Shown here: piece by piece, positions 13,033 through 64,000 of the stretch
Position numbering within the stretch: position 1 is the stretch's first letter
Layout: every line of letters starts with the position of its first letter
Assembly (NCBI GenBank): GCA_030264375.1
Contig: JASCQW010000032.1
Location: 38,339,376-38,403,375, forward strand
Reading direction: 5' to 3'
DNA length: 64,000 nucleotides
DNA from: Carcharhinus longimanus
Taxonomy: Eukaryota
Position numbers and translations under genes: made by a program
The notes under the pieces: model-generated
Told to the model about the DNA's origin: nothing
The model's input: the letters and a program-made list of their open reading frames with translations, nothing else
Databases searched by the model: none

Positions 13033-15318
13033 GTAAGGGTGAAAATTCTATGTGGCAGGCAAATATAACATTTATAACATTAACCTTAAATAGACAGGAC
13101 TATAAAATGAGGTACTTGATCATAAAAGAAAACGATAGCTATAGAAATTAGGAAAGTAAAATCCATGTACTTTGTTTAACAAGACCGTTAGCAATTTTAG
13201 GGAAATACTTTTGTAATTCCCAACATGTAAACAAGGTCTGTGGATGTACCATGCAAGCAAATAAGACAAATGTATAAGTAAATATGAATACCTTCTAATG
13301 GAATAAGTCATGAGGATATTGATATTGGTAATGATTGACACCAGGGCTAAACACACTGAAGTGGAAATTCCATTAGATCCAATTTCAGGCCTGAAATGAA
13401 CGCCCCCAACTAGGAGGTCCCAGTTTAGACTTTAGAAATTAGTAGTGCTATTTCGGTGAATTGTTAGATCTTAGCATGCTTCTACAGATAACTTACCCTA
13501 TTTCAAAAAAGAATAGTTAGTTTTGGCAGGGGGGAGGGAGGGTGGCTGGGAAAGAAGGGTTAGAATGACAATAGAAGATTACTTACACTGTGGAGTCAGA
13601 AGGGTACTCCTGCGTCTCCTCGCTCAACAGGAACTCATACTTTACATTTTATTTGAAAATAATTTTTTTGTTGGCGACCAGAATCCAGTGTGGTGCTGGC
13701 TTAGCTCCAGCTTCACATAATTTCCATGACGGGCCTAAAACAGATGTTTGACTCCTCATTTAAATGTTTAAGGGACCTAATTATTGTCTTAGGTATCATC
13801 CTAATGATTAAGACCCAACCCAATATTATGGCATACATCTTTCAGGCATATCTTGGGTGCTAGATTTCTTCCTTGAAATTAGCCCTTTTGCTTGTTTTCA
13901 GCTCTAATGTTTACCCCACTGCTCTTACAGCACATGTCATGGTAAAACATACAAACAAAGCATAAATAGTGGATATTGCTATCATTTATATTATGGAAAA
14001 CATTTTTATACTCAAGTCATTTGAAATATTATAGAAATCAGATACATATACTGTAATTAACGAGGAAGCATGCAGAGCCTAATTTAACTGAGATGGCAGA
14101 TATCATATCTCAAGGTACTTTTGACATGTATTAAGCAACTTGCATTTGTGATTCCTATTACTTTGCCATACAGTATAATCATTTTTTTAAGTTTATGAAT
14201 GATTTAAAAAGCTTTTTCTATAAATGGCCCAGAATTTGCTTGGAAAGTAATGGCAATTTTAATATGCTTGCAGTTATTGGTGTAATCTATTATTTATGGT
14301 GCGGAAGAGATAGCAAGTTGTGAATCACTACAAATTGTTGAATAATTTGCACTGCTCAACCAATAACCTTGTGAAAATGGGATCTATCCCATGAGCCTCC
14401 CTGTGAGTTTCAGGAAAGTGCTGCATTTGCACCATCAAACGAATTAATTTCACTGCAGGAAGTTAGGGCTGACACAGAATGATGTAAGAACCCTTTTCAT
14501 TTCAATGTTTAATTTCCTGCAATGCCACTCAACCATTCCAGGCCAGAAAAGTAACAATTGAGACAGATTATAAATTGCTCCTGGAGGTTTTTAAAACTTT
14601 TAAGTGTTACATTTTAAAAATTATTCTTGTTTTCCCTTTCCATTCCTTTCAGTCTCTGTCAATCTAATTTTTATCTCCATTTTGTATTTAATTTGGTGTA
14701 ATTCACACCATTTCTTTTTCCACCATGAGCTCTGTTTCCTTCTGCCCTTGATTAAGGAAATAGAGTGTTGGTCCTAATGTCCAGTAAGCTCTCAGATACC
14801 TGTCAATTTGGTGTCTCAACATTATCAATTTGCATTTCCAGCACTTTGTAAGGCAAAATACTTTTGGGCTGAAGGATTGGAAAAAATATACAATAATGGG
14901 CACACCATGAGATGTTATGCACCAGCAAATTCTGGGCCAAATTGCAATTTAGTTTTATTTGTTTGTCATTCATTTTACATTCTCACAAGTACAGCTTTTT
15001 ATCTTCATCATTTATACTAATAGCTTAATTTTTTAACAGTTGTAGCAAATTAACTGAAGACCTTGGAACCTAACCCTTCATGTTGTAGGAGGCTGTTTGG
15101 TCGCACCTTTCACCTTACCTCAATGTTTTCTAAACCATGAGTTCCTTTCTTCCTATTGACCATTTTGTTTTCATTCTCATACAACATTTTCCAAAAAAAA
15201 ATCCATCTAATTTAGCTAACCTAATAATCAATCCATCCCTGCCTGTCATGTGACCAATCATTAAAACAATCAAAGTAATTTGTAAAAAATGTAACTTTAT
15301 TCTTCTTGGCCTGGTTAG

Positions 15319-15603
15319 GTTTCTATAGCAGGAACTGCCATTGTTACTCTGGAAAAAGAGTTGTCTGCGTCTTCTGCTGTGAAGGTTACCAAGCCAGTGA
15401 AACCTCCCGTGTTAAAAGAGGCCAGAATTGTGACAGAGGAGAGTGTCTCTCCCCAGCCTCGTTTTAGAGAAAGAACAGATGTGTATGAAACACGGTTTGA
15501 TACCGAGGTGCACAGGCATCTAGGTTTAAGTGTTTCAGGCTCACTTGAAGCTGATTTTGATGTTGAACACGAGGAAGATCAATATGAAGCAGAAGATGAG
15601 CAG
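15319..15603 (+). CDS. ttn: titin exon 16
   Basis: VSIAGTAIVTLEKELSASSAVKVTKPVKPP. Confidence 0.92.
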
Positions 15604-42674: not shown

Positions 42675-42929
42675 GTATGTTCAATATTTGTGTTTCAGTT
42701 TCATTTTTCTTATTCCAGTTTCCAGCTTCCACCCCTGAAAAGTTGACTTTTGCTAAGGTTCCAAATTTACACACAACATTCTTATACTTTAGCCATTCTC
42801 TTTATTTATGAACCCAGCCACCTCACCATAGATGGCATCGCAATGAGCTCCCTGTGCCACCCGTCATTTGTACAACGGAAACATTTTTTTTTCAAAATTA
42901 TAACTCAAAGTGGAAAAAGTTAAGGGATA

Positions 42930-43470
42930 ATATCCTGTACCCTAGGCTCCTAAAAGAGTTACCTGCGGAGATTTGCTGTTATGATTTTGCAAAGTCCCCT
43001 AGGTCCCAGTCAACTCGAAGTTGACAAATGTAATTCCATTATTCAGGGAAGGAAGGGGAGAAATTAAGGAACTACAGGCCAGTTGGCTTGACATCTGTTG
43101 TTGGAAAAATACTGGAATCTATTATTAAGGAAGTCTTAACGATGACCAGAGAAAGTCATTAAAGTTTTGCAAAATTGTGCTTGGAATTTTTTTGAGGAGA
43201 GCATAGATAACAGGAAACCCAGCTGATGTAATATAGTTGGATTTCCAAAAAGCATTTGGTAACGTGCCGTGCAAAGGTTTAAGGTACAAGCTAAAGATTC
43301 TTAGAATTGAGGGTAATATGTTAGAATAGTTAGAGGATAGGTTGGTGGACAACAAGCAGAGAGTAGGGTTAAAGGGGACATTTTCAAGTTGACAGGCTGT
43401 GACTAGTGGAGTACCGCTAGGGCTGGGGCTCAACTATTTACAATCTATATTAATGAATTATACAAATAGA
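42930..43470 (+). mobile_element. decayed CR1 reverse transcriptase fragment
   Basis: NYRPVGLTSVVGKILESI, LDFQKAFGNVP, VTSGVPLG. Confidence 0.85.
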
Positions 43471-44421
43471 CCAAGGGCACGATTTTACCAACTATTCGTG
43501 CCACACTCCTGCTGTAGCGAGGTCAGAGAATTTGGCACCCAGCCAAATCTCTGTTCGTGGCAGCGGGATGGGAAAATCCCACCAGCGTGAACAATGGTAA
43601 TGTTCCGGCCCAAGAATAATAAACCTAAGATAAAAGCAAATCGCATGTGAGGACCCGACGTGTTGGACCCTGCGAGTTGAGGAAACACAACCAACCCCTC
43701 AACAATGAGAGCCATCCAACCCCCCACATCATGCGGACATGAGGTTTATCTGACAGGACTTGCCACTCAGGCCCCCTTTGCCCCTGAATTCCCCAATCAG
43801 GCCCCCTTCCCACTCAGAACCCCCTCAGACCGCCCACTCTGGCACTTTTCCCACAGGCCCCCCGCGGCGGCCCCCCGGCCCCCCGCNNNNNNNNNNNNNN
43901 NNNNNNNNNNNNNNNNNNNNNNNNNNNNNNNNNNNNNNNNNNNNNNNNNNNNNNNNNNNNNNNNNNNNNNNNNNNNNNNNNNNNNNCACTCTGGCACTTT
44001 TCCCACAGGCCCCCCGCTGAGGCCCCCCTTCACCCCTCAGAATGCCACACAGCCTCCCTTCCCCTTGGACTCCCCAAACTGCCACCATTCACCTTTAGAC
44101 CCATCCCACTCAGTAACTAACACCCCCCCCACCCCACCTCACTGGTCCCCTTCCTCTTCAGACCAACCACTCAGCCTCCCTTCAGGCCATGCATCTTGGC
44201 AATGCCAACAGTGTACTGTCCCCTGGCATCCTAATGCTGACACATTGGCCTGGTGCCAAGGGCCCTGAAGGGGCTCAAGGAGGTAAGTCCAGTGACCATT
44301 TGTTCCTCAGAGGCTGACAGGCTGCAAAAGACTGATCCCTCAAGGGTCCTGGAAGTTGGGTGGGCTCAGGCTGAGGTAAAATAGTTGACCTTGCCACTCT
44401 CTGCTAGAATGGGGATGTTGT

Positions 44422-45606
44422 GGCTGGTCTGCCCTGCTAACCCTGGCAGACCTGAATATTGCCCTGGCATGGTGATTTCAGTCAGCCCTATGATCAAGAC
44501 CTGGGTTCCTGTCTGTCAGCTGTGAAAATTCTGAAGTGGCCAGTTCGCTTTCATCTCCATGTCTCCCCCGGTCACCTGGCAGGATTTTAAGTCGTTACAG
44601 CATTTTATTTGGCAGCCGAGATTTTCCTTTCACTCTGACCAAAGCTACAGGTGTGAAGTCCTCTGACAGAAAGGAAATGTCAATTTCATCTTGGGCGTGC
44701 GGAGGCTCCATTCTGCACAGTCATGCATTCAGCCCCAATGTGTGCACGCAGTTTTGACTTTCTGAGGTTTCCTAGCAAGCTGAAATATTGAAACCTATCC
44801 ATTGCACTTGAAGCCTTTGACCTGCAACAAATTCACTCTGCAGTGCCTCATAAAAGACTCAGCTGCCAACTCAGTGGACTTCTTTCTCCCTCCAACCACC
44901 TGTGTTTATTTTTATTTGCCTTCACGGTTGAACACCTCAAGTACCTCATTAATCCTGACCACAATGTTGACAGAATCTAAGTCTGATTGACTATTTGTAG
45001 TTTAGCTTCCTCTTTTACAAACCACTTTAAAGAGGAAGTTAGACTACAAACTGTAAATCTGGCTTAGTCTCTGCCAACATTGTGGTCAGGATCAGTGAGG
45101 TGCATTCAACAAACTCAGGTGGCTGAAGATGATCGAGACCCATTGAGCTGGCAGTTGAATCTTTTACTAGGCACTGCCTATTGAATTTATTGCAGATCAA
45201 GACTTCAAGTGCCATCGAGAAGGTTTCAACAATTTCAGCTTATTGGGAAGTGTCAGCAACTTCAAGTTGAAGCTCTGTGCATACATTAGGGCTTAATGCA
45301 TATGGTGCAGACTGGACCCCCCTGCCCCAGGTGAAATTGACATCTCCTATCAGGGAACTTCAAACGGGTCTACTCTCACCTGCAGCTTCTGACAGAGAGA
45401 AAGGAAAATCTCAGCTGCAGAATGGAATGCTGCAATGACTTAAAATCCTTAGGTTACCAGGCAGTATGGAGGTTAAAGTGACATGGCCACTTCAAAGTTT
45501 GCACAGCTGACAACCAGAAATGCAAATATTGATCACAGGGTTGCCTAAAATCATCATGCTAGGGGTGATCTTCATGTCTGCCAAGGTCAGAAGGGAAAGT
45601 CCAGCC
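44422..45606. repeat. ~1.2 kb imperfect inverted repeat (foldback/MITE-like) centred at ~45022
   Basis: Inner arms 44994-45015 / 45029-45050; complementarity traceable for ~590 nt each side. Confidence 0.9.
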
Positions 45607-47159
45607 AAGACCACCACCACCCCCCCCCCCATGCTGATGGAGAGTGGCGAGATCAACCATTTGCACTCAGCTCTAATTAACCTAAACTCTAGGACCCTTG
45701 AGCGATCTATCCTCTGCAATCCTCTGCAGCCTAGCAGTAGCAGAGTGGCAAATGGCCTCCTCGAGCCCCTTACAGCCTAAAGCACCAGATCAGAGTGCCA
45801 GGGAACAGTTCATTGTGGCACTTCCAAGGTGCATAGCCTGAAGGAAGACTGAGTGGTGGGGCGGGGTGGGGGGGGGGGGGGTGGGTGGNNNNNNNNNNNN
45901 NNNNNNNNNNNNNNNNNNNNNNNNNNNNNNNNNNNNNNNNNNNNNNNNNNNNNNNNNNNNNNNNNNNNNNNNNNNNNNNNNNNNNNNNNNNNNNNNNNNN
46001 NNNNNNNNNNNNNNNNNNNNNNNNNNNNNNNNNNNNNNNNNNNNNNNNNNNNNNNNNNNNNNNNNNNNNNNNNNNNNNNNNNNNNNNNNNNNNNNNNNNN
46101 NNNNNNNNNNNNNNNNNNNNNNNNNNNNNNNNNNNNNNNNNNNNNNNNNNNNNNNNNNNNNNNNNNNNNNNNNNNNNNNNNNNNNNNNNNNNNNNNNNNN
46201 NNNNNNNNNNNNNNNNNNNNNNNNNNNNNNNNNNNNNNNNNNNNNNNNNNNNNNNNNNNNNNNNNNNNNNNNNNNNNNNNNNNNNNNNNNNNNNNNNNNN
46301 NNNNNNNNNNNNNNNNNNNNNNNNNNNNNNNNNNNNNNNNNNNNNNNNNNNNNNNNNNNNNNNNNNNNNNNNNNNNNNNNNNNNNNNNNNNNNNNNNNNN
46401 NNNNNNNNNNNNNNNNNNNNNNNNNNNNNNNNNNNNNNNNNNNNNNNNNNNNNNNNNNNNNNNNNNNNNNNNNNNNNNNNNNNNNNNNNNNNNNNNNNNN
46501 NNCTCAGGATAGAAAATGTAACAAAATGGTGACTTTGAAAATCGAAACACCAGGTTTTACACCAAATGCTATTGGGAAATTTAAGTCTCTGACATTTTAA
46601 TAAAATTTATATTCCTGTGCCCTTTTTAAGTGGAAATACCATGGAACCCTAATAATCTAAGTGTAGATATAACAAAGTCTTGTATATCCCAAGTTAGTGT
46701 CTGAACTCCCTCTTTGCTATCTCTCTAACCGTCTCTAACTGGTTGCATACTTTTAAGGAGTTTTCAACAAGTACTGTTGGGCCTTTTCTCTCAGCTTGAA
46801 ATTTATTAATTAAATTTGATCATTCTACATTCATTGCAGAAGAACTTTCATTTTATAGATTTAAAATACATATTAGTACATTGTATTTGCGACTGAGATA
46901 AAGTTAGCAGTCTTTCACTTGTGTGAAGGTATTTTGGCAAAATGGTTGTTGGAAATATCAAACCTTTTCTTGTTGGACATAATACTGAAACAGTTCTATC
47001 CTTAATCTGGCTCTGACTGACATTAAAGCTAGCATTATATTGCTTCCAAAAATCCAACCCTTGTATGTGCCTGCTTCTACCTCTCTTTACTCTTCAAGAC
47101 ACTCTATGAAACCTATCACATTGATCAAGCTTTTGGTTATCTGCTTTGATACTTCTTTA

Positions 47160-48600
47160 CCCTAGAATGGTCACAACACAGAAAGATGTTATTCAGTGCA
47201 TTGTATCCTCACTGCTTTTCTACAAGAGCAACTCCACCATTCCAGTCCCTGCGTTTTTGCTGTAGTTTGGTAATTTTGTTCTTTTCAGTTAATTATCCAA
47301 TCCCTTTTCAAAGCCATGATCCGCCTCTAAGGGAATGGATTCATTGCGTGGGGAAAAAAAAACTTTCCTTCATGTCACCTTTGCTTCTTCTTTCATTCAT
47401 CTTAAATCATTGTTTTGTGGTTCTTGATCCTACCACTAAGGAAACAGTTTCTTCTTACCCACTATGTGCAGTCCCCTCATGATTTTAAACAGCTCTGTCA
47501 AATCTCCGCTAAACCGTGCCTTCTTGAAAGAGAGCAGCAAGTCCCTGAACCCTGGAAACACTCTGTGCAAATCTTTTCCTGTGCCCTTTCTAAGGCATTC
47601 ACATTCTTAAGTGTAGTGCCCAGAAATGGACACAAATCTCAAACTGAGCTTGAATCAGCATTGAAAAATATTCACCATAAGTTTCTTGCTTTTGCACTCC
47701 ATGCCTCTATTTATAAACATAATTCCAAATATCTTATTAACAGCATTCTCAACCTGCCCTATCATCTTCAACACCTATATCCAGGTGTCTCTTTTCCTGC
47801 ACTCACATTTGTAGTGTACTCTTTATTTTATATTACCTTTCCTTATTCTTCCTACTAAAATGTATCACTTCATACTTCCCTGCAATAAATTTAATCTGCC
47901 ATCTGCCTGTTTTACCATGTCCTCCTGAAGTCTATCACTATCCCCCTCATGGTTCGCAATATTCCCAATTTTGTATCATTTATAAATTTTGAAATATTGC
48001 CCCTCACACCCAAGCCAAGTTCATCAATATAGATCAAGAAAGCAATGGTCGTAATACTGATCCTTGGGGAAGCCCAGTATATACTTTCTTTCAATCTGAA
48101 AAAACAATTGTTGCCACTGCTGTTGTTTCCTGTCACTCACTGAACTTCAAATTCATGCTGTCACTGTTCCTTTTATTCTCCGGACTTTAACTTTGCCAAC
48201 AACTCATCTATGTGGCACTTTATCAATCGCCTTTTGAAAGTCCATGTACATCACATCAACCCCATTACCCAATCGACTCTTTCTGTTACACCATCAAACA
48301 TCTCAAATCAAGCTAGTTCAATACATTTAATCTTGAACAAATCCATACTTGTTTTTCTTTAATCCAAGTGATAATTAATTTTGTCCCAGGTTATTGTCTC
48401 CAAAACCTTCCCCACCATCAAAGTTAAACTAACTGGCCTGTATTTGCTGGACTATCTTTAAACTCTTTTTAAATCCTGAGTGCAACATTTGCAATTTTGC
48501 AATCCTCTGGCACCTATTTCTAAAGCGGATGGGAAGATTATGACCAATGCCTCCATGATTGCCACGCTTACTTCACTCAGTATCGTCAGATGCATTTGAT
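47160..48600 (-). mobile_element. decayed CR1-type LINE 3' half
   Basis: FLIYIDELGLGVRGNISKFINDTKLG (FADD-like), DFQKAIDKVPH on minus strand. Confidence 0.85.
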
Positions 48601-49280
48601 GGAGTCGTAGTGACTTGTATAGCACAAGGTCAAATCTTATTTACTGTTGCTCATGTGCAGCACCGTGGGAAGTTTTACCACACGAATGATACTATATAAG
48701 TATCAGGGCTGCAGAGTTTGGTTATGTAGTACTAGTGATTTTGGAACTCTGAATTCTAGTTTTATTAGCAAATTACATCCATGGCATTTCTGCACACAGC
48801 CGGTGTGATGTGTGTGAAATTCCAATTTGTTAAGTACAATAGGGAGTGTAAGTAAGATAGAAATATGCAGACTAGACAGATTATGATGTTGGCCAGCATC
48901 TGACACCGATTTAGCAATAGATGTGCCATTTTAGACCTTGCTATTCTTATTAATGCCCTCTTTGAAACACACCGAGATACCCCATCAATGTAATTTATAA
49001 ATCATTAACGTCTTACAGGTCAATTGCTGCTGGCTGATCAAATTTCTGGAAGTGCTAAGTGGTGTTGCACATGGGGCGAATATTACTGTTAACTGCAAGG
49101 GCTCTGAGTACACCACATCATGGGCAATAGTAACAGTTTCCTTGGGTTGGAACATGAAGGGAGATGGTGCAGAAGCAGCAATTGAGAAGACAAGCCATAT
49201 GGAGAGGGAGGAGGGAAGGAAAGAAGCAAGAGGTATTTACACACCTGCAATCCTCCCGAGCCCTCATCCTAACTCTAGTT

Positions 49281-49442
49281 ATGATGTGGAGGTGCCGGCG
49301 TTGGACTGGGGTGGGCACGGTAAGAAGTCTCACAACACCAGTCTATTTCTCCACTCACCTGATGGAGGAGCAGCGCTCTGAAAGCTTGTGATTCCAGATA
49401 AACCTGTTGGACTTTAACCTGGTGTTGTGAGACTTCTTACTG
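49281..49442. mobile_element. Penelope-like short element with 22-bp inverted repeat and flanking direct repeat
   Basis: IR 49320-49341/49419-49440; taactctag(t/c)t on both flanks. Confidence 0.7.
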
Positions 49443-50092
49443 TAACTCTAGCTAAGTCTGGGTCAGGTGTCTACAATTTACCAAGGAGATGGCCAAAGAA
49501 CACTACTTTTTCTTGGGAACAGGGTGAAGACAACGTTGTCAGTGTCTATAATGGTGACTGTGGCACTTAGTTTTTCCACAACCAGCTCTGTCCAAGCTGG
49601 AAAAAAAAATGACATGGCTAACACCTGATTCACCTTCCAGTGATGGATGGGAGAGGTGATGGTACTTCTGTCTGCCAGAAGACGGGACTTCATTGTGTTT
49701 CCCTGAACAGTGAGAAGCAGGAGGAGCATGTATCTTGCTTTGGAAGGAAAGCGGGCTTCTCTTTGGCGCAGGCTGCCATCTGCTGCATACATGTGGCTTT
49801 AGGGACATTATGTTTGGATTTTCATCATCAGGCAGGCAGTGGGAGTTGAAGAAATTCCCGGCTTGGTTCACCTAGGAGAAATTGCCCAAAAAGATGGGTC
49901 TTAATTGTGGAATTGTAACTGTGGTTGAGCTGTAATCAGATCAGCTGACCTGGGAATGTTTGAAGGCAGCCCAGGTGATCCAACAGCCTAATGGATTTTG
50001 AGGTTTTTAACCAAGCATTCATAATAAGGGCTTGGCTGAGAGCCCAGCAATCTTATTAGACTGTTAAAGCACCTGACCTTTCGAAGAAAACA

Positions 50093-50200
50093 TTGCCATG
50101 ATTCATTGAAAACCTGGTCTGACTCCATGAAATTTTGCCACGATTCATTAAAAACCTGGTCTGACTCCATGAAATAGGCATGGTCTGACTCCATGCCTAT
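50093..50200. repeat. 42-bp tandem duplication followed by a 10-bp-stem hairpin
   Basis: ttgcca(t/c)gattcatt(g/a)aaaacctggtctgactccatgaaat x2; ataggcatgg/ccatgcctat. Confidence 0.8.
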
Positions 50201-50499
50201 TCTCACAATGGAATTGGCCAGGTCAGCAGTACAGGAAATAGACTTCGAAACTCTGGGAATGGGGTCAGGAATTCCCGAATCAGGTCTGGCCACCATTTCT
50301 AAAGGACTTCTACATCATCCTGACTGGGTGAAAATCCAGGCCTACATTTCAACTGTGAGCTATTCCAAAACCATAAACTCAGGGGTTGTATGCCATGCTC
50401 AGCACATCATGTCGCTGAATGCCTACTGTCCTGGAAATAGTCATGTCGCATTTATTCTATGCCAGTTGCAACTGTCTTTCAGCCATAAGGTCAAAACAT

Positions 50500-50730
50500 A
50501 GGTGGGCAACATGAGTTACCTACCTTATACCTGGCTAATGAAACCCCTTTACAAACTAACCACATATAGCAAGCATGCTACCGTGGGAAACATCATTGGG
50601 CAGAAGAAGGAGTGCTGGAGCATTGGGTATGCTGTCTAGATTACTGTGAAGGTGCCCCCCACTATTGACCAGAGCGAGTATCCATTTTGTAACGGATGGT
50701 TGCATACCTTATAACTTGGTCATCATGATA
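50500..50730 (+). mobile_element. decayed Harbinger transposase C-terminal fragment; element probably extends to ~52070
   Basis: VGNMSYLPYTWLMKP and CCLDYCEGAPHY*PERVSI...YNLVI resemble HARBI1 GDxGY..WLMTP and CLD.GG.LQY.PE. Confidence 0.65.
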
Positions 50731-52401
50731 GCACAACTCTTGCCACCAAGAATATGGCAAGTACTTCAGAAAGAGAAGCAAGAGGACAGGATGGACTGTG
50801 TATGAACATGTAATTCAACTTCAGTTCTTGTGAATAATGCCACAAATCTTAATTTTTATAACAAGACACCCAAATACTCCACAAAATATTCAGCTAATTA
50901 CTTTTGTGCATTTCCTTTATGTCTGCCTTCTATGTCCCCATGACTATCCTAGTGCTTCAGTATGGTGTTACCTCAGTGACGGTTGCATGAGCGATGGAAG
51001 GTAGGAAATTGCAAACAACCTTGGAGGGCAGTTTTTAGCAGCTCTGGGCCATGGTTCAGACTGCACTGCCTCAGCAATCTGGGCTGACTGGCTTACAAGG
51101 CAGCAGCAAGAGCACTGGCAGGCTGACAGCAATAGAAGTATAAATGCTATCATCCTGAGGGAGTATAGCACTTGTATACTCCCAAGCTATCACTGCTACA
51201 CCACCTCAGCAATCAAGTAAGCTTCTGGAGGACATATTGCCAGACAGTGAGACTCTGCAACCCCTTTGAGCACTGCTGCCTGCAGCCATGTTGGCAGCAC
51301 TCTGAGCCTGCATGGCACCAAATTGGACTTGTTTGGCAATAAGCTGAGATTTCATAACTTCAGTTTGAATTTCCACTGTCGTACTGACATGTTGGGGGCT
51401 TCTGTTTTGCTGCAATGGAAGTCAAAGCATCAGACATCGGACTATGGTTGGGTCTAGAATGTTCTCATGGAATTTGCCACTACTTCCACACTGGAAAGAA
51501 TGGGCTTCAAGCTCTGCACAAAACTCATGCCAAGTTGGATCCATACTTCTGCACATTTCTTAAGGGGTGGCAGCCTTCCTGGCAGGTCTGCTAGTGCTTC
51601 AAGCATTTCTTTCTGCGTGCCAGCTAGCCTTGTTAGATGAGGGTGAAGCATGACTTGAGAAGCTGGGCCATCAGGAGGAACATAATGTCATCCTCAGTGG
51701 ATTAAACCCTGCCACAGGCCCCTGCTTCAGTAACAACTCTTCCACTGGTGGCAAGCACTGTCTCCTCCATGGAGATCAGCACATGCAGTCTTCCCACACT
51801 CCCTTCTCACCCCACCCTGGCAGGTGCCACCTTGTCCTAAGGAGAGAGTAGGAAGTGTGTCATTGAGTGTGGTGCAAAGTGTTTGGATATTGTCTATGCC
51901 ACAGTTGAACAGCTGGCAGAATGTACAAGTTGTGAGATGCAAGTTTGCATCTGCAAGCTGCACAGTCACCTGGAAATATTTAGCTGTAACTCTCAGGCTG
52001 TGCTGCACTTCAATCTGTACTATGCTGAAAATTTGCAGTCCTTCCTCTTGGTTAGCTAGCACTTAACCTGTGGATTTCTTCTATCTTTACAGTGTGGTTC
52101 TCTAACTCCACTTCTTTGTTGTTTTTGCTGCTGGGTGTTCCCATTGTTTGTACAGAGTACCACTTTCTGCCCTTCCTTCTTTTACATAATCAGTTCATAT
52201 CCTTAATCAATTTTTATATGCTGTATATATATTTCAGCTGCATTATTTCAAATTATAAGCACTGCACAGTTACATTATTTGAATTTAATTGTGATACTTT
52301 TAAGTTAATGCCGTAGCTTATTAAGTTGAAGTTTGTTTGTGAGATTACAACCAATTCGCAACATTTTGGTGAAACTGCATTTTTTTAAAAAATACATTTA
52401 G

Positions 52402-52590
52402 ATATGAAGGTTACATGGTATAGTAAGCAGAAGGAGATCAAACAATCGCGATTCTTCAAGATGGTTCAGTTTGAAGATACCTACCAACTGGAAGTTGCTG
52501 AAGCATACCCGGAGGATGAAGGAATGTATAAATGTGTAGCATCCAACTCCGCTGGAGAGGTGTCGTGCACTGCTAACTTAAAACTGGAAG
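52402..52590 (+). CDS. ttn: titin exon 44, Ig I15 C-part
   Basis: MKVTWYSKQKEIKQSRFFKMVQFEDTYQLEVAEAYPEDEG. Confidence 0.96.
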
Positions 52591-53315
52591 GTAAATTAAT
52601 GCATTCTTTATTTTGGCTTTATATGCTACATATTACATTATTTTTACATTTCTCTTTTCCTGGTCTGAATTTTGAAGCATATTCCTGCCTGTGGTTATTT
52701 CCATTGTTTGGTAATGGTTGACATTGCCTGTGGCATTCATTTTTACACTTTAGCACCATTGGGCCAGCAAGCGTGTTCACTTTTTACGAAAGCATGTGCA
52801 TTTTGTGCTTGCATTGCTGAACACCATTCCACCTTGTCTCTGTATCTGCCATTGGTTGAAGCATTTTCATCCGTAATAGACTTCATCAAGCAACTCATCT
52901 AGTCTACATTTGTTTCCAAACCTGTAATAACTCATGGCCAGTTCTTTCATCCGCCTCTAAGGTAAACAACTGAGGCTACCAGCTGTGCACTGTGGAATGC
53001 CACTATAACACGATTATACTTACTAAAATAAATTTCTTTTGTAAACAACATAATATGTTACAACTGTAAATTTATTCAGCAATAAAGCATTGTACTTCAT
53101 CATTTTGTTTGGATTTTCTTGTTAGATCTCCTCTTGCAGTGGCTTCAATTTTAAGATATTTTCAGTAAACTATAAAATAAGATGAAAGTTTTCATCAAAT
53201 GCACCCAACTACCTCAACCATACAAAGGCACACTAATTTTTAAATGACAAGTATGTGCCTTGACTTTTAATTTATAATGCCAGTCATACAGTGCAAAACC
53301 TGATTTCCTTTCCAG

Positions 53316-53592
53316 GATATAGAAAGGTCGATTACATCAAAGACATCATATGTCTACGTTTGGCTCTTCTGAAGAAGCAACATGAGTCCAAATGCCTTTC
53401 TTTAGTGTGTGCATTTTAAGTAGGCAAGTGCACATTGGGCCGGCAAGCATATTATATGCAATAGTGTCTGTTGGTCCCAAACCAAAGATCCAAGGATTGC
53501 ATAATGGACAGTTAATCAAGCCAAGAAAAGTTCTGGTGCTTCATTTTGATAGTCTAAGAACAACAGTATACTTATTACTGATGCAAGAATAA
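53316..53592 (+). pseudogene. ttn: degenerate Novex-1 (exon 45) pseudoexon
   Basis: Acceptor ttcctttccag; QMPFF..QVHIG..AIVSVGPKPKIQGLHNGQLIKPRKVLVLHFD resembles recalled Novex-1 Ig; two frameshifts, C-terminal half missing. Confidence 0.75.
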
Positions 53593-54120
53593 AATTAGGA
53601 TTTCCTTGGTATAGTTCTTGTTAACTGACTTAGCAATTTCAGCAAAGTACAGCCCACATTGGGCAATATAAATATGGAAAGCATAAATAAACTATACTGG
53701 CAAAAAAAATCTAATAGTGCTCTACTTACAGTAAACAATTTACCCTCTGACTAGATATTTGCTGTAATCCTTCCAAATAGTATATTTTTTGATTTTGCAC
53801 TTCATATCACCTCATGTTTCTAAAATCTGATTCCTTTAACACACAATTTAGAAGCCTTTCATCTTCATCTTCATCTGGAACATTTGCAAGAGAAGAACTA
53901 AATCTTCATTTTGTTCAATGAATGCCATTTTCTCCCATGGAATTTTGCAGATTTTATTGAGGAAAAGGAATTGGGAGTTTTTCTCAATCAAGTGAATTGC
54001 ACCTCTTTAGCATGTGGTGAGCATGCTGGGTTGCCCGTTGGACAACATGAGCTGTTGCTTTGATTATTTTGTCAGTCATGATTTAATATCATGATTAATA
54101 CTTTGTCTTTTGTTACTCAG

Positions 54121-55005
54121 ATTACAAAGTGCAAAGCATAGATAGTCAGAGCATAACAACTTCTGGAAAAGCTGTAGAGGAATCCATCGCTTCAAAGACT
54201 TTTGAAGTATCAGAAATGCATGTGGAGTCCCCTGTGACCTTAACGCATACAAAGAACTATACCAAGGAAATCAGTTTGCAGCAAGAACATACATACAGTG
54301 TTCAGACATTTGAAAGTATTTCCATGAGTTCATCAAGCAAAACAGTTTCCTCTGGAAGTTGGGAAGAATGCCAAAAAGTTGCCAAGACGGAAACAGTTAG
54401 AAGTGGCTGTCAAAGTTCGCCAAAAATCTTGCAAGATCTGAATGATGTCACAGTTTTGTTAGGTCAAACTGCATCTCTAAAATGTCAAATTCTAGCATTG
54501 CCAAGACCTGAAATAAAATGGTATAGAGAAGATCAAGAACTTGTGGAAGTTAAGAGAATTAAAATTGTTTCTATAACAGAAGATGAAGTTTTGACATCAT
54601 CTGAATTAATTATAGAACAGATCCAAGAAGAAGACACAGGAATTTATAAATGTAAAGCTACAAATCCTTTTGGCGAAGTTAAATGCAAAGCCGAAATAAT
54701 TGTTACTGCAGCCAAACCTGCCCTTGAGGTTCCCCTGATTCTCCTTGAACTTAGTGATCTAAAGGTGAAGGTTGGCCAGATGGCACAGTTCATCTGTTCT
54801 TTTAGCGGGGAATCTTTTACAGAGGTCATATGGCGTCACGGAAGCACAAGACTGGAAGAATCACGAAGACTGAAGATTTCTCAGAATGGAAATGTTATGT
54901 CTCTCACTATCCTAAATGTGCACTTAGAGGATCAGGGACAGTACAGCTGTACTACAAGAAATGAAAGTGGTGAAAAGAAGACTACTGCTATACTAATTGT
55001 AGAAG
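54121..55005 (+). CDS. ttn: Novex-2-like exon (exon 46) with two Ig domains
   Basis: 885 nt, phase 1-1; VQSIDSQ, YSVQTFESIS, EESRRLKISQNGNVMSLTI match recalled Novex-2. Confidence 0.9.
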
Positions 55006-55296
55006 GTGGTTGTTTATTATTTTATTTACAAACAGCATCCTGATCCATCCACTTGATGTTTCTGTTCCAAAATAAGTTTGGTACCTTTTTAAGAAGATCC
55101 TAAATTTACTTATTAATAGTAAAATGTTCAGTTTAAAATGTTTAGCTAGTGATTTATACAAACCTTAACACTAGACAGACCAAGTCTGCATGAATTATTG
55201 CAAACGTTGCCTCTTGCTGTTATAATTTTTTCAAGTATTTACTTTGCTGAAATTATTAAATCAGTTAACATTTATCCTAATTTTATTCTTGCATAG

Positions 55297-55812
55297 CTGA
55301 AGAATCAAAACCCAAAACAGGTGCAAAAATTCCCACTGATAGCAGTTCAGATAGCACAATAACTGAACAAAGACCACATATCACACCTGATAGCACACCA
55401 GAAGTACAAAAGAAACCATCAAGTCCACCACCGTCTTCAACCAAAAGGCCAACTGGAAAATAGAAGCTACGAAGCCGAGACTATTATCCTGATGTGGTGC
55501 CCTTTGACGAATTGATAGACACTGGAGCCATAGCACCGATGTTCTTAGAAAAGCTACCTCCAGAAATCATTGTACAAGATGGAGAAGATGTTTTGTTGTT
55601 CTGCATCGTAAAAGGTGTACCATCACCTTGTGTACTTTGGCTGTGCAACCAACGCATAGTTGAAGAATCTTCATTGTGTTCCATTAAACATGATGGGTTA
55701 CTATGCAGTTTAAAAATGCAAAATGTCTGCCAAAGGCACAGTGGCACTTATTCATGCAAAGCGGTTAACTCTGCTGGAGAAACAGCGTGCAACACTCTAC
55801 TTAGAGTGACAG
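55297..55812 (+). CDS. ttn: extra Novex-like exon: S/T/P linker + Ig domain, with in-frame TAG at 55461-55463
   Basis: 516 nt, phase 1-1, acceptor ttgcatag, donor AG|gttggc; APMFLEKLP...FC.VKGVPSP..W...HSGTYSCKAVNSAGE. Confidence 0.7.
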
Positions 55813-56240
55813 GTTGGCAATTGCATGCTTTGGTCCTTCCCAATGTGACTTTATCATGCATCTCAGCACATCCTATGGAAAGATTCTTTGCAGAAAATCA
55901 TCTTGTTGACCTGCGGATTATTGCATTCATTTTTCCTGAAATCAGATTAGGCATGTTGAGGCATGTTTGTTGTTTCGATACAGAGCAAAATGGAGAATGA
56001 TTTTTTTTTACAAAACCCTGGATTGCCTGAATTATCTTTATGATTCAGTCAACCAGTTGCTTGGTAAATCCTTCTAGAAATCACAATTAGCGAATATATT
56101 TAATTTTTTGCATGTATGTTTTGTATGTCTTTGCATATTAAATGTATTTTGAGTTTCATTTTCCTTTTTGCATATTTTATTTTGTGGGGAAAAACAGTGA
56201 TACATTCTTATAATTATATTCAATATTCATTTTCATGCAG

Positions 56241-56288
56241 AAAAGATTCAAGACAAGATTGAACAACAGATAGAAATGGAAGTGAGAG
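56241..56288 (+). CDS. ttn: titin exon 47 micro-exon
   Basis: EKIQDKIEQQIEMEVR resembles recalled ERIEQEIEMEMK; 48 nt phase 1-1. Confidence 0.92.
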
Positions 56289-57547
56289 GTAATACTTTTA
56301 TTATTATTCAATAAACAATTATTTAACTTTGCATTTAATGCTAGGTTTGAACAACTGCTATCAACTTTGATATTTTGCCATCATGATAAGTTGTGCTGTG
56401 TTACAAAGTATTAAAAAATTACACGTTGTCTATGCCAATCTGATTTACAAACCCAACTTCTTGTTGTCATTCTCATTTTGACCTAAACAAAAAAACCCTT
56501 TAACATCAAAAATATTTACTTTGCAGGAAATGTTATTTTTTAACCAGTATTAGTTCCTCATATTTCTGCTGAATTTCAATTTGAAATTGCTCATTGTCAT
56601 AATTGATACACTGCAAAAGGGATATATAGAGTTACATTCAGTAAGTTGTATTCTAACATGAATTATGTAATGAGAAGTGGTTAAATGAACTCTCAACTAT
56701 CTGTCGTTCAATGATTGAATGCTGGAAATATATATTTTAGTGGTGATTACTTGAATCAGTACTTTTGTTGCTCTCATTTACTTCTGATTTTCCAATAAAT
56801 TTTTCGATAAAGAACTCACAGGCAATATTTCATAAAGGAACTTTGACGAGGGTCTTTTCCATTTTTAGCATTCATTTTCTTTCATTTTCATGACATCAAC
56901 CTATCCTCATGTATTTACACTGCCTTGCAGATAGCAGTATGTGTTCACGTACGCTGGCATTTTTTTGCATAATATTGTGAATCTAGCAACTATATTAGTT
57001 CGAATAAACGCCTTCTCATGCAAATTGGAAGGATTACAGTTATGGATGAATTTATTTCCATCTATTGATTCCAATTCTAAAAACAATCTCTATCAAACTG
57101 GCTGAAAAATTTACCTGTTGTTGAAAAAGGATCAGAAAGGGCGTTTATTCTGCTGTCTGCAAGTCAGGTAAGAATTGTAATAACCTAGATATCCCCAAAT
57201 CACAGGGACAGATTTTACATTCAAAAATAAGAAAATTCTTTCATGAGATCACTTTATGCTTTTTTCAAAATATACACTCTAATTTGATTTTTGAGAAGAA
57301 ATTGCAACAGTCTGAAGAAGGAACAAAGAACGAGCGATTTTCCTGCTCAGAATCTTTAAAAAGAAAATGGTCTTGTGTTTATTCGAACAAATATGGTGAG
57401 TGAATTTTTTACAATATTTGTGAAAAAGCTGATGCATTAAGTTCATCATTTCATCATATTACAGATTTGTTCTAAATTTAAATTCTTATAATGTTTTGAA
57501 CTGGCTTTTAAGAAACTTCATACAAATTATTTCTTTTTTTTTTGCAG

Positions 57548-60500
57548 AGTTGTTTTTTGGTGCTGGGACAGAATATTTGGAAAATCGAGAAAACCTGCGT
57601 GATGCATTTTCGGATGCCGAAGATTATTTAGATCAGGGAATGNNNNNNNNNNNNNNNNNNNNNNNNNNNNNNNNNNNNNNNNNNNNNNGGTCTGAGAATT
57701 TCAGGCCATCTTTCACTGAAAAGCTCAAATTCAAATCCGTAATGGAAGGAGAACAAGCTATTTTTAAATGCAAGTTGGTTGCCAGCCCAGCACCAAAAAT
57801 TGCATGGTTTCATAACAACAGACCTATATGTAAAGATTCAAGAAGGATTATTAAAATAGAAAGCGTAATGCACATTCACAACTCAAGTTTGGAAATCAAT
57901 AATGTAGAAGAGAAAGATTCAGGGAGTTACAAAATATTTGCAATAAACTCTGAGGGCTCAACAGAGGCAACTGCATCTTTACTCATTGCACTTAAAGAAG
58001 AGCAAAATGCAAACTATCTGAGCTTTCTGAAAAGATCAGAGATGGTTCACGAAAGTATAGACTCATTAGTTAAGAAGCGGGATGCAAGACTTAGAGTTGA
58101 TCTCAGACATGTTGGATCACCCTTTGATAAGAAATATCAGGTTCAAGGAGCTTTGCGTAAACATTCAAATTCTAAAAGCAAACTGATGCGTACAATGTAT
58201 TTTGAAAGAACACCAATAAGGCATTATCTGTATAAGGACAGATCTGCAGAAATACAGTCATCTAGATTATCAGGGAGGGTTCTCGATAAGAATAGTTTGA
58301 TTGATGAAGATATTAAAATTAAACTGCAGCTTTTACGTGAAGCTAAAAGGAAAAAAAGATTTTCTCTTGCATTCTCTGAAGCTTCATTTGATCTGGGCAC
58401 TGCATCGGTTGAAGACAATCTGAAGTATAATTTTGCATATTTAGACAGGGAGCGCAGCAGAAGTATGGGAGATATTGATCACATGGATTTTGAACCTAGT
58501 AAGTCTTATTTTGTGCAAGGACAGGAGCTGTCTTCTGGTGACTATTTCCAGAGAGAGTCTCCTGAATTTCAGTGTCGAATGGAGCGGGTATCAGGACTTT
58601 CTCCACAGGAAGTAGAACCACAAAGAGACCTGAAAGAAAATTTTACTGAAGAGTCTTCCAAAACAAACGTCATAAAGTCATTACCAGAGCAATTTCTGAA
58701 AGGTAGTTTAATTCAAGAAACAGAACAAGCACAGCAAAGTCAGTACTGGTTGGAAGAAGAGGAAACCGATGAATGCTATTTTCAGAAGCAATTTGATGAA
58801 AGAGAAGAACCACAGAGTGAACCTTGTGAAGAACCACAGACATTCTCTGACCAGTGGCTTGGAGGCTTTATTAGTATGCAAAGGGACGTAATAGCAAAGG
58901 GGCCTGGAGAGTTGTTTGAGCCTCCCACACCAGCAGTTAAAGAAACACCAATAATTCAAGAAGCAGCACAGCCTGAAGCCAGTGTTGAATATCCAGAGAT
59001 TTTACTGAAGGAAAAAGAATTCTGTCTGTTTGACAGAACACCAATAAAGCAAACTCCAGTGGAATTTAAAGAATGTCCAAGTAAATCAGAGTTGAAGGAA
59101 GACCATGAGATATTTTCTGACCAGTGGTCTGAAAGTTTGGTCAGTGTGCAGAACTCATTAGCAAAGGGACCTGAAAAGAACCAGTCAATGNNNNNNNNNN
59201 NNNNAGCAACTGAGATAAGTGGATCCAGATTTGGTGAACAAGATGACGTGGTGAAAGAATCTACACAAAAACAGATGCCTTCTCCTTTAATAGAAGAAAA
59301 AGAAGCCTCCACTCTTTTCAGAACATCATTTGATGATAACACTATGGAAATAAGCAAAATTTCATGCAGAGTTGAAGACGAAGAAGACCCCAATGCACCT
59401 TTTGACAGATGGTCTGGGAATGTCTTAGTAAAACAGGGGTTTGGATTTGACCACGTAATCATTGATCCAACAAAATCCACTTCCGAGGAAAGTGAGATCA
59501 GTGTCTCTAAAATCAACCAAAAAGCAGCACAATTTGAAAATGAAGATTATACCCAGATGATAACACCCTCTACTTTGCCAGAGAAAATAGAAACCTCAGA
59601 ATTTGTCAGTTCCTTGGTGAAAGAAATACCAAAAGAGGTGAAGCATATTCCATTTAAATCTGACAAGGTGAACTATGGGACATCTGTGGAACATTGGCCT
59701 GAGAGATTCATTAGTGTACCCAGTGACTTACTAACTCAAAAACCTGAAGATGGTCATAAAATATCTGACCAACCTGCATCAGCAGCCAGGCAGGCAGAGG
59801 TAGTTAGTATGTCCAAAATCAGGCATAAAACCCCACAAGATGAAGCACAGTTTACAGATTCCAACCATGTTGTGAGACATTCTCCCCTGATAGCAAAAAC
59901 AAAAGAAACATCAACTTTTACTAGAACAGTGATAAAACAAACTCCAGAGGATATAAAAGAACCTCCATATAAATCTGATGTTGAAGAAGAACATGAGTCA
60001 CCTTTTGATAAAAGGCATGGAAGATTTATTTGTGTGGAGAAAGACTTTCCAGCAACAAAATATGAAGATAGCCATAAAATCCCACTGACTGATAAAGGCA
60101 GATCAACAGTAGATCATGCAGAGGTGATTGATTTATCTAAACTCAGTGAAAAAGAGCAGCATAAAGGCAAGGTTGAAGAATTCACTACAATACTAAGACC
60201 TTGCATACCAGAAAAGAAAGAAACTTCAATATTTGTCAGTTCACCCACAAGTAAAAGAGCAACAAAAATAAGAGAACCTCCATATAAACCTGAAGTGAAG
60301 GATAGTCACCAGATACCTCCAGAGCAATTTGTCGGAGGTTCTGTTGGTCTGATGAGGGATTTTGTAACTGAAAAGTGTGAAGATACCAATGGAACAACCA
60401 ATAGGCCCATACCATTACTCGAACAAATAGAGACAACTAGCATATCTAAAATCAGTCAAAAAGAGTCACACCCTGTAGGTATGGCTACAAGCACCACCCA

Positions 60501-61519
60501 GATAATACACATAGAACCAGACAGCAAAATTGAATCAAGCTTTTTCATTTCTTTGAAGAAAGAAACAGCAATGGATTCCCCAAAAGAACCTGCATATGAA
60601 TTTGGACATATGGAAGATCATGGAACAGCAGATGACCGACAGGCTAGCTTTCTAACTGAGAAACCTGAAGAGAGTCATGAAATGTATAACCAACCTAAAT
60701 TTGCAGAAACACAGGCTGAGATGGTTAGTGTAGCTAAAATCAAACAAAAAGAGCCACAATACGAAGCAAAGATTGTGCATTCCACACGGATGGTGAAGCC
60801 GCCTTCTTTATCAGATGAAATGGAAACTTCAACTTATTTAAGTTCATTGAAAAAGCCAACTCCAATAGACAAAATAGAATCTCTTGAAAAAGCAGAAATT
60901 AAGGAAGACCCTGAGACAGCTGTTGAAAGTTTTGCCATTATGCACAGAGACTTCCTGACAGAGAACCTGGAAGGTGACCATGGAATACTTGATCAATTAG
61001 CAGATAGAGATATAGCAAAGATTAGCACATCTGAAATTAGTCAGAAAGAATCACAACAAGAATGGAAAGTTAAATGTTCTACCCAAACAGTGAGACCTTC
61101 TCCTTCAACAGAGGAAAATAAAACTTCAAATTTCTTCAGTTCATTAGTGGATGAGACACCAATACAAATACAAGAACATCAAAATAATTTTTTAGCTACC
61201 AAAGAATCTCCAAAACAAGAGCCTCCGACAATTAAACATTGCCCACCTGAATTTCTCCATCATGTTGCATCTACCAAAATTAAGCAAGGAGTCTTGTGTG
61301 TGCTTGAGTGCCAATTTCAAGGACACCCACAACCTACTGTAACTTGGTACAAGGATGAACGCCCAATTCAACGAAATATGGGCTATACTATTCACTCCAT
61401 GGAAAACCAATCTACATTGAGTATTGGATGCACATGCAAAGAAAATGAAGGAGTATATACATGTGTAATATTCAACCAATATGGAACTGCAAGTACATCT
61501 GGCAGCCTTACGATACAAG
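57548..61519 (+). CDS. ttn: Novex-3 (exon 48) part 1: Ig, long unique/repeat region, Ig
   Basis: RDAFSDAED, FRPSFTEKLKFKSVMEGE, WFHNNRPI, RVDLRHVGSPF; donor AAG|gtaaga; contains two small N gaps. Confidence 0.93.
58800..61200 (+). repeat. degenerate ~270-320 nt (~90-105 aa) coding repeat, about 8 copies
   Basis: Recurring SKIxQKE..Q, ETSxFxSSLxKxTP, EDH..D/E, DFLTEKxE motifs. Confidence 0.75.
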
Positions 61520-61627
61520 GTAAGATTCTTAATGCTTTATTTATGAAATTATTTTCTTAAATATGTTTTTGCAACATATTTTATGAATGATGACTTCAGA
61601 TTAATGAAAAATATTTTTATTTTCCAG

Positions 61628-64000
61628 AACCAGAACTGTTTGAAGAACCTTTGAAAAGGTTTGACATACATGTTATTGAAGCGCCAGAGAACTATACTGA
61701 AGAAGATGATGTTGACCAGTTGCTTGAAAATGAGATGGAGTCTTATTTTCCACCGTTTACTGTAACAAAATCCACTTTGCAATTACCAAAGATTGCAGTA
61801 CCGCGACCTTGTCCTGTAAATTTATCTTTGCTTTCTTCTCCTGTTGAAATTAAAATAACGGCTCCAACTCCAACACCAGAGCAAGATGAAGAACGGAAAG
61901 AGTTACTTCAAGAAGATGAATCTGATTCCAAGCATTCATCTCCAGAACTGTCCTCTCAGACCTCAAAGNNNNNNNNNNAGCACAAATTTACATTTTCTTT
62001 TGATGTAATTTCTGAACCCCCACAAGTTTTAAAAGAATTAGATAAGATTTGTTGTGCAGAAGGAGAATCGGTGATGTTTGAATGCCTAATTTCTGGAGAG
62101 CCAACACCTATTGTTACATGGACCCAAAATGACAGAGTTTTAACTTATGATAATAGCAAGCACCGATTTGAAGAGAGTGGAGGAATGTATAGGTTATACA
62201 TTGATGATGCTTCAGAATCTGATGTGGGGAACTATAAGTGTGTGGCTAAAAATAAAGCTGGACAAGTACAGAGCACATCTAGTCTTACAATAGAGCCCAC
62301 AATGCATAGTTTTGTTTGCCACCTGAAGGATATTGAGCCATATGGTGAGGAGGCAGAGCCATCTGTCAGCCGTTTTCTCCTCAATTTAAGTAAAATGGGA
62401 CAAGAAGGTATTGAGCAGCAAGAACAATTATCAGTACAGGAAGGGCATGTGGACACTTCTCCTTTATATAGCAGAAAAGAACAAACATTAGATCTAATTT
62501 CTGAATCTGGAGACTCTTTGATTTCCACTGCTGATAAATTTTCGAGTAAAGTTTCATCTTTAAAGGAAGAGGGCATTGAAGCCAAAATAGAATCAAATAC
62601 TTCCTTTTCTGATGAAATTTCATCTTTGTGGGAGGAAAGCAATAAAATAGTCTCAGATTCAACAAGTTCCTTTCCTGATGAATGTTTGAGTAAATGTTCA
62701 TCTTTAACAGAAATTAGTAAAAATGTAGGTCAAAAAATGCCAGATGTAGCAGCAGAACAAACATATTCTATTAGCGAGTATCTGCGCTCTCTTGATGAAG
62801 ACCAGAAGGTGCATGAAGCTTGGAAGATGGAAGAGGAAACGGAACCAAAAGGGGACAAATGTGACTCTGTGAGCGAAATGTATGAGGATAGTACATTTCC
62901 AGAAAGTGTACTTAAGCAAGTTGCAGAAAGTCCCAGAGCAGAAACAGAAGGGAATGGATCAGAGATGAAGCCAAGTGGTAACTCCATATCCCCTGAACCC
63001 ATTTGTGAAATAAATGTCAATCTAGCAGAAACAGTTTCTAGGAAGGATGAGGAAGATGAAAATGTTTCCATAGCACGATATCTCCTTACTGCAAGACAGG
63101 AAGAAGCACCAATTCATGAAGAGGCAAATAATGAGGCATTTGGGTACGATGAATCTGGGATAACTTCGATGGAGATTGAGGAAGTAACATTCGGTGCTGT
63201 TTATGACTATTATAATCAAAATGAAGAGTGGGTACGCTCTCTATCCCCTGAATCCGAAATGTCAATTGAAATTAGCAGTACAATTAGTGATGATGTAGCA
63301 GAGAATGGAAGATTTTATACACCACCCTTGGCTTCTGATAATTTCAAATCTGCTGTGTCTGCAGAGTCATTCCATACCCCACCGCAATCTCCTGGCTATG
63401 TGACTCCTCCAGAGAGATTGCCTCCACTTAATGTTGTGGGTAGGTCTCCTTCTGGCGCTTTGCTAGAGAGGTTTTATACACCACCTGAATATTTCAGATC
63501 CCCGATAGATGAGGGTATTGAAACAACACCTCTTGAATATATAAGTCTAGCTGCTGAGGAGCAAAGATCAGAGTTATTTTCAACTCCTGCACAGGAAGCT
63601 GAAGCAAAAGGAAATGAAACACCGCCAGCATTTATCAAACCTCTTGTCAGAAAGAAGATCTATGAAGGAGGCACACTTACATTTATCACTGAGGTAATTG
63701 GTTGCCCAGTTCCAAATGTTAAGTGGTACAGAAGGAAATCATTATTGGAACCAGACCATAGAACTAGACTTGAAAGAGAAGGAGGTTTGTGTATATTGGT
63801 AATTCATAGCATCCAGAGAGAGGATGAGGGAGAGTACATTTGCAGTGCTGTCAACATCATAGGAGAAGCCAAAACTGTTACTCAGGTGGATGTTTTACCA
63901 CAAAATGGAAGGTCAATTGCATTGCCACCCCCAGTGACTCATCAACATGTTATAGAATTTGATGTGCAACAAGGCCAAACATCAAGAACTCCTTCACCTC
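61628..64000 (+). CDS. ttn: Novex-3 part 2 (open to window end; two Ig domains visible)
   Basis: SPVEIKITAPTPTPEQD, EPPQVLKEL..CAEGESVMFECLISGEP, PPAFIKPL, ALPPPVTHQHVIEFD; not in ORF track because no stop occurs in window. Confidence 0.93.

Follow-up and report, generated by a model that had tools for sequence, protein, structure and literature searches.

The Novex splice-choice region of a shark titin gene: a likely ancestral extra exon, exon decay and predicted competing RNA pairings in intron 47

The Novex region of the titin gene raises two questions: how many alternative exons it held ancestrally, and what decides between them. In human TTN, Novex-1, -2 and -3 are exons 45, 46 and 48, and carry the immunoglobulin (Ig) domains I16, I17 and I18-I23 (PMC5852582, PMC13649281, PMC11033294); papers on human titin describe three Novex exons. 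Novex-3 accounts for ~20-25% of the titin protein of the adult heart (PMC13649281), and the choice of Novex exon is independent of RBM20, with a regulator that is not known (PMC5852582). We have analyzed a stretch of 64,000 nucleotides (nt) of Carcharhinus longimanus, contig JASCQW010000032.1 (the window), which contains the 5' part of the titin gene of a galeomorph shark on the plus strand. The original prediction for this region was a larger ancestral Novex repertoire than that of mammals, together with exon birth and death and possible isoforms not described in mammals.

Following exon 44, which completes Ig I15, we find a decayed Novex-1, a two-Ig Novex-2, an extra Ig exon with a stop codon, exon 47 and a split Novex-3. 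The order of modules in the original prediction was thus largely right, with corrected coordinates (Table 1). We consider it probable that this is a Novex splice-choice region in which a stop codon disrupts a likely ancestral extra exon, Novex-1 remains only as a decayed exon, Novex-2 contains two Ig domains and an intron divides Novex-3, and in which predicted competing RNA pairings of intron 47 likely steer the inclusion of the frameshifting exon 48'. Comparisons were made with 38 named non-human proteins, i.e. P0001, P0076, P0077 and 35 of the 73 matches of one search; the other matches, 37 without names and one insect protein, were left out. The searches of named proteins reached models of up to 5,229 amino acids (aa), and full-length titin models lie beyond that scope.

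The extra exon encodes a 55-aa linker followed by an intact, cysteine-rich I-set domain (62 bits). As expected of a Novex-type cassette, it is an Ig exon with phase-1 junctions at both ends, lies between exons 44 and 47 and has orthologues at the same position. Its frame is open in the models of the sevengill shark Heptranchias and of quail, and is closed in the window, where translation stops 55 codons into the exon. The Heptranchias model (P0001) joins a two-Ig Novex-2 to an intact extra exon that matches the window at 89% over 116 aa. The quail model (P0076) has the whole exon joined to exon 47, with 64.7% over 116 aa, and that of gecko (P0035) has part of it between exons 44 and 47, at 62%. 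The finch model (P0077) runs in the order exon 44, Novex-1 (125 aa), Novex-2 (193 aa, one Ig), a partial extra exon and exon 47. The extra-exon domains of the window, Heptranchias, quail and gecko form a clade of their own with a Shimodaira-Hasegawa-like approximate likelihood ratio test (SH-aLRT) support of 100. A search of representative sequences with 43 aa of the linker found six clusters at E ≤0.001, five of them with a local match of 52-64% identity, and added no taxa. The extra Ig (55533-55811) has 8 cysteines here, and 7 in both Heptranchias and quail, with all 7 quail positions shared; 11 of the 324 Ig domains of the named set have 7 or more. A redox-sensitive role would be no more than a guess. 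Searches with the extra Ig gave only generic I-set clusters in the ESM Atlas, and generic titin and cell-adhesion Ig domains with no specific relative among PDB sequences.

Because orthologues occupy the same position in Heptranchias, quail, gecko and finch, the extra exon was likely present in the ancestor of jawed vertebrates, mammals having lost it since. To this extent, for one module, the proposal of a larger ancestral repertoire is supported. The same orthologues speak against exon birth in this case. Descriptions of mammalian Novex exons do not include the extra exon, as would fit an origin in sharks by duplication of a neighboring Ig exon, yet the linker motif and position common to quail, finch and gecko contradict a shark origin unless those models are misassembled, and we give it hardly any credence. 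Three points weigh against our reading. All the orthologues are predicted gene models. Those of gecko and finch end inside the extra-exon Ig. The exon is present in four of the nine named models that reach the interval, and is missing from two teleost, two frog and one snake models, a count in which absence from a gene model is not absence from a genome.

The status of the stop codon is a separate matter. The TAG is one base from Glu, and the splice sites, 516-nt length and Ig core residues of the exon are intact. An assembly error or a single allele could account for the TAG, or it could be bypassed by a cryptic acceptor such as the phase-1 AG at 55519 downstream of it, in which case the extra exon would be a working fourth Novex exon in this shark. 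We consider this rather improbable. The cryptic acceptors have poor pyrimidine tracts (0.33-0.56), and 10 changes in the exon are derived in the window against 2 in Heptranchias (binomial p = 0.039). That imbalance is not significantly above the one in the second Ig of Novex-2 (3 versus 2; Fisher p = 0.54); the TAG may therefore be recent, an allele or an error. If it is real, the extra exon has little functional weight in this shark. A read-through past the weak donor of the exon (55813-55900) is nearly identical to the Heptranchias model over ~25 codons and has TGCATG at 55822; it is a possible intron-retention end or splicing element.

Novex-1 is a relic, as had been proposed. It is the first cassette after exon 44 and its Ig is orthologous to I16; in place of an open, symmetric coding exon of ~375 nt there is a pseudo-exon with frameshifts and stops, in which the Ig core W and the F-strand C are replaced and there is no GT at the position where the orthologues end. 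Splicing of exon 44 to it leads to a stop after 35 codons. The references were the Novex-1 of finch (125 aa, equivalent to a 375-nt exon 45) and of a goodeid fish. The relic aligns with the fish Novex-1 with a score of 93, compared with a mean of 28.6 and a maximum of 46 for 30 shuffles, in a frameshift-aware alignment that covers the central 65 codons. The later Ig strands were placed by motif sliding, in shifted frames but in order and each by a small margin, to ~53735. Among the 324 Ig domains the best two matches are the finch and fish Novex-1 (47.8 and 40.4 bits; the next is 28.1), and in the tree the relic joins the Novex-1 domains (SH-aLRT 98) on a long branch. The elephant shark retains Novex-I and expresses it in skeletal muscle (PMC12241362), and Novex-1 is the most conserved of the three Novex exons (PMC5852582); the decayed Novex-1 of the window therefore reflects a loss in this lineage. 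In the Heptranchias model the match between the Novex-1 stub and the relic changes frame partway. This suggests a frameshift there as well, and so, from one gene model, an early loss of Novex-1 in sharks.

Novex-2 was expected to have two Ig domains, and it does. It is made up of a unique stretch of ~98 aa, IgA (54417-54704) and IgB, and ends at a weak donor, GTGGTT. It aligns from its start with the finch Novex-2, sharing the unique stretch and the second Ig (IgB, 55%), and IgB groups with the finch Novex-2 Ig (SH-aLRT 99). Position, unique N-terminal stretch and an Ig orthologous to I17 identify this exon as Novex-2, of a build different from the single-Ig exon 46 of 552-582 nt in bony vertebrates (PMC5852582 Table 1). 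The standard form is reported not to be expressed in pig, mouse and rat (PMC5852582), which provides a precedent for exon death in this region.

Novex-3 follows exon 47 and has Ig domains orthologous to I18-I21, but it is not one uninterrupted exon. The split that had been suggested is present, as a short intron directly after I19 that contains a stop in frame. Once spliced, the two parts are collinear with the model of basking shark, with no gap, and the frame is continuous across short runs of N. In a tree of this product from six named cartilaginous fishes and two tetrapods the window groups with basking shark (100/98) within the galeomorph sharks (100/100), in a sample with no ground shark. 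The branch of the window is long in this tree as well, at 0.19 compared with 0.077, which makes its excess of changes in the extra exon less telling. The stop codon and polyadenylation site of Novex-3 would lie past the end of the window. The distance from I18 to I19 (57691-61518) is 1,170 aa here, compared with 394-2,110 aa in 34 named vertebrate models and 451-485 aa in the reptile models among them. No significant protein self-repeats were found in the Novex-3 linker.

IgA and the Novex-3 intron might have arisen in cartilaginous fishes; on the opposite view both are ancestral and bony vertebrates have lost them. Among the 324 Ig domains a close match to IgA is found in Heptranchias only (78%), and throughout the bony vertebrates tabulated exon 46 measures 552-582 nt and exon 48 is undivided. 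Yet IgA does not resemble a recent copy of IgB or of a neighbor, with best non-shark matches of 32-35% and a long stem branch, and the intron has the phase 1 and the position at an Ig end that are seen in ordinary titin Ig exons. We regard gain as a real possibility, though somewhat less likely than not, in a comparison that had no outgroup.

The original prediction included a possible further relic between exon 47 and Novex-3, for which it gave no position. We find no Ig relic there. A tblastn search of intron 47 with Novex Ig queries gave no Ig match, and there are stops in the spliced frame. What was taken for a relic is a conserved non-coding segment that contains exon 48' and a 237-nt element. 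Intron 47 is 1,259 nt long here, and 1,021-1,105 nt in eight bony vertebrates (PMC5852582). The orthologue of exon 48' has exactly the published sizes of 85 and 100 nt with an alternative acceptor 15 nt apart, and lies in intron 47. It is frameshifting, and both forms encounter a stop within the exon. Of 21 named model segments, 12 match this stretch, one of them weakly, and its bases are read in three different frames by the models of shark, of frog and turtle, and of finch, which points to constraint at the nucleotide level. The 237-nt element could be a silent or a poison cassette. Both its ends seem to be used in the finch model; on the other side, heart RT-PCR (reverse transcription PCR) across exons 44-48 gave exon 48' and no 237-nt product (PMC5852582). 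In four chondrichthyan models an ATG starts a stand-alone 'Novex-3' gene, where the window has TTG at 57284-57286. An internal start codon at exon 48' is not supported, given this TTG and the other frames read in other taxa, and the stand-alone gene start is probably a prediction artefact.

Intron 47 has three conspicuous inverted repeats, which the original prediction did not include, and is predicted to fold into two alternative states. A stem of 20 base pairs (bp) is formed by 56915-56936 and 57151-57171 with a mean probability of 0.97, and continues as 15 bp between 57002-57017 and 57135-57150 (0.95); this long stem would hide both splice sites of the 237-nt element. Alternatively 56989-57012 can pair with 57374-57398 (-27.3 kcal/mol), over the donor of exon 48'. 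The two states cross and so exclude each other, with predicted energies of -116.0 (selector 1) and -112.2 kcal/mol (selector 2). By prediction, then, a single docking arm has two partners and two incompatible folds of similar stability. The best long-range duplex has an energy of -29.1, compared with a mean of -18.7 for 60 shuffles, none of which was as low, and the top three duplexes sum to -75.0, a value that a single one of 55 low-GC tiles attained. Identical codons in the finch translation number 18 of 21 in the arm and 9 of 47 outside, and turtle and frog translations of selector 2 match the docking arm of the window on the minus strand. The few changes deducible from the translated bird and turtle sequences are compatible with pairing and affect one side only, with U or C facing G and A or G facing U.

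A good deal weighs on the other side. Tiles chosen without matching for GC content reached the top-three sum in 9 of 110 cases, and 8 of 111 window tiles equaled the best duplex. The whole-region folding z-score is only -2.33, with 4 of 100 shuffles as good, and the region was picked after looking. Changes of frame within the loop may exaggerate the contrast of arm and loop in finch, and the changes in pairing were inferred from protein translations rather than from a DNA alignment that could reveal covariation. What keeps intron 47 conserved could be just its protein-binding sites and the poison exon, the stems being chance or without a role. The modest z-score would fit this, as would the equally good folding of other window tiles, the match of a frog model to the loop region as well, and a mild enrichment of GCATG in the Novex introns (8 in the introns of 52591-57547, with 3.6 expected; 7 of 300 resamplings). 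TGCATG, ACTAAY, TCTT and polyadenylation hexamers are not enriched there relative to resampled sequence. Against it stand the predicted convergence of three stems on one arm, covering three splice sites, and the preservation of pairing by the few changes that can be inferred. We take this alternative very seriously, at only a little below an evenly balanced proposition. Our proposal that the pairing in intron 47 acts as an unproductive-splicing dial on Novex-3 output is, taken by itself, rather less likely than not, a good lead and no demonstration. An Rfam search of 52591-57700 gave one weak match (E 0.061, far below the gathering score), which we attribute to chance. A low-GC tile elsewhere in the window, at 7816-8336 by the third matched exon, has its strongest long-range duplex (-40.1 kcal/mol).

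On the proposed mechanism, exon 44 could be spliced directly to exon 47, or Novex-2 could be included, adding 295 residues and two Ig domains; the frame permits both, and their use is presumed. Inclusion of the extra exon or of the Novex-1 relic leads to an early stop, and would result in transcript decay or stubs. Exon 47 would then be spliced into Novex-3 with removal of one further intron, or Novex-3 would be skipped for a downstream exon. Inclusion of exon 48' or of the 237-nt element introduces stops that terminate Novex-3 transcripts early, probably leading to decay. With the docking arm on selector 1 the splice sites of the 237-nt element would be hidden, and with the arm on selector 2 the donor of exon 48'. 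The state of the RNA would set whether that donor is free, and hence the amount of productive Novex-3. If this is true, competing pairing over the exon 48' donor is a concrete, mutable candidate for Novex regulation. The isoforms expected would lack any Novex insert, carry a Novex-2 insert with two Ig domains, or end in a Novex-3 assembled from two or more exons, and phase-1 symmetry would allow other joins, e.g. exon 47 to the second Novex-3 exon.

The idea of freely combinable modules, all with phase-1 junctions, does less well. The junctions of exon 48' (85 or 100 nt) break the rule, the constitutive exons 43, 44 and 47 are likewise bounded by phase-1 junctions, and in this shark two of the modules are unable to encode a protein segment. 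Since those two are dead, the working Novex repertoire of this shark is probably smaller rather than larger, and smaller than that of a bird. Exon death, by contrast with birth, is supported, by the decay of Novex-1 and the nonsense codon of the extra exon. The history is one of inheritance and loss rather than birth, and one module is a published poison exon. The jawed-vertebrate ancestor may have had at least four Novex-type exons, which each lineage has thinned differently; this part of the titin spring would then have been edited by repeated exon loss. A bolder version, which we think unlikely as a whole, is that a fourth, cysteine-rich Novex Ig exon of that ancestor was lost in mammals and is still spliced in birds, lizards and some sharks, and that intron 47 is a 450-million-year-old two-state RNA switch setting Novex-3 output through poison exon 48', the missing RBM20-independent control, humans included.

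Table 1. Features of the Novex region, with positions in the window
Feature	Position	Strand	Properties
Exon 44 (C-terminal part of Ig I15)	52402-52590	+	189 nt, phase 1-1; 77% to finch
Decayed Novex-1 (exon 45 / I16) pseudo-exon	53316-~53735 (end approximate)	+	AG acceptor kept
Novex-2 (exon 46) orthologue	54121-55005	+	885 nt, open, two Pfam I-set domains
Extra Ig cassette exon (fourth Novex-type)	55297-55812	+	516 nt, AG..GT, phase 1-1
In-frame TAG in extra exon	55461-55463	+	Glu in Heptranchias, quail, gecko and finch models
Exon 47	56241-56288	+	48 nt, equal to frog exon 47 and to PMC5852582 Table 1
237-nt element	56931-57167	+	AG..GTAAGA, phase 1-1, stops in spliced frame
Predicted docking arm	56989-57017	+	Partner 57135-57150 (selector 1) or 57374-57398 (selector 2)
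Exon 48' orthologue	57296-57395	+	100 nt, or 85 nt from second acceptor 57311; GT donor after 57395
Novex-3 (exon 48), first part	57548-61519	+	3972 nt, Ig I18 and I19
Novex-3 intron	61520-61627	+	108 nt, phase 1, GT..AG
Novex-3, second part	61628-64000	+	Ig I20 and I21, open to window end

A finch titin model can be followed through the window one exon at a time, with residue 1 at 3204 and exon 44 as the last, and the sizes of exons 43 (126 nt) and 44 agree with PMC5852582 Table 1. Finch residues 305-579, by domain order the Z-repeat region, have no match of at least 45% at 9175-15319 of the window. Intron 43 (42675-52401), which splits Ig I15, is 9.7 kilobases (kb) long compared with 0.6-5.0 kb in eight bony vertebrates (PMC5852582), and GC-rich patches suggest repeat insertions. 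A tandem-repeat scan gave a single trivial 12-mer.

Compared with human TTN, the shark region has the same order after exon 44, the same flanking exon sizes, orthologous Ig domains and a terminal-type Novex-3. It differs in having Novex-1 as a pseudo-exon, two Ig domains in Novex-2 (885 versus 552-582 nt), a further Ig exon before exon 47, and an internal intron in Novex-3. The extra exon shows the picture of three Novex exons to be mammal-centered. The elephant shark is likewise a cartilaginous fish with connectin/titin Novex-I, II and III, but its Novex-I is intact and expressed where ours is a relic; the text mentions neither a further Novex exon, nor two Ig domains in Novex-II, nor a divided Novex-III, and the figures may show the exon build (PMC12241362). 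Among the matches listed in our literature search, no titin paper names a fourth Novex exon, and none mentions a Novex-2 with two Ig domains, a Novex-3 divided by an intron or pairing of RNA within intron 47.

Existing annotation already holds about half of what was predicted as new, since exon 48' is published and the extra exon is already part of automated NCBI models, whose names are wrong or hypothetical. The models of Heptranchias ('myosin light chain kinase-like'), quail, finch and gecko have it whole or in part at the same position, with no stop at the codon broken in the window, and are not recognized as containing a titin Novex exon. Several NCBI models are therefore misnamed pieces of titin. 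The chicken titin annotation of Granzier et al. 2007 may name a fourth Novex exon; if it does, birds are already known to have the extra exon, and what is new is confined to its range in sharks and its decay.

Exon 48' has been seen by RT-PCR in mammals, chicken and frog, in a region conserved to zebrafish (PMC5852582). The shark exon shares its location in intron 47, sizes, alternative acceptor, frameshifting character and conserved surroundings, and the range of the exon is extended to a shark by size and position. Neither the RNA pairing nor the 237-nt element is described in the text of that paper that was consulted. The closest mechanistic parallel to our proposal is the docking-site/selector pairing in mutually exclusive splicing of the Dscam1 type. 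The intron 47 pairings have the same logic, with one arm that can pair with either of two downstream arms, each excluding the other. They differ from the Dscam1 type in being predicted only, and in covering the splice sites of non-coding cassettes.

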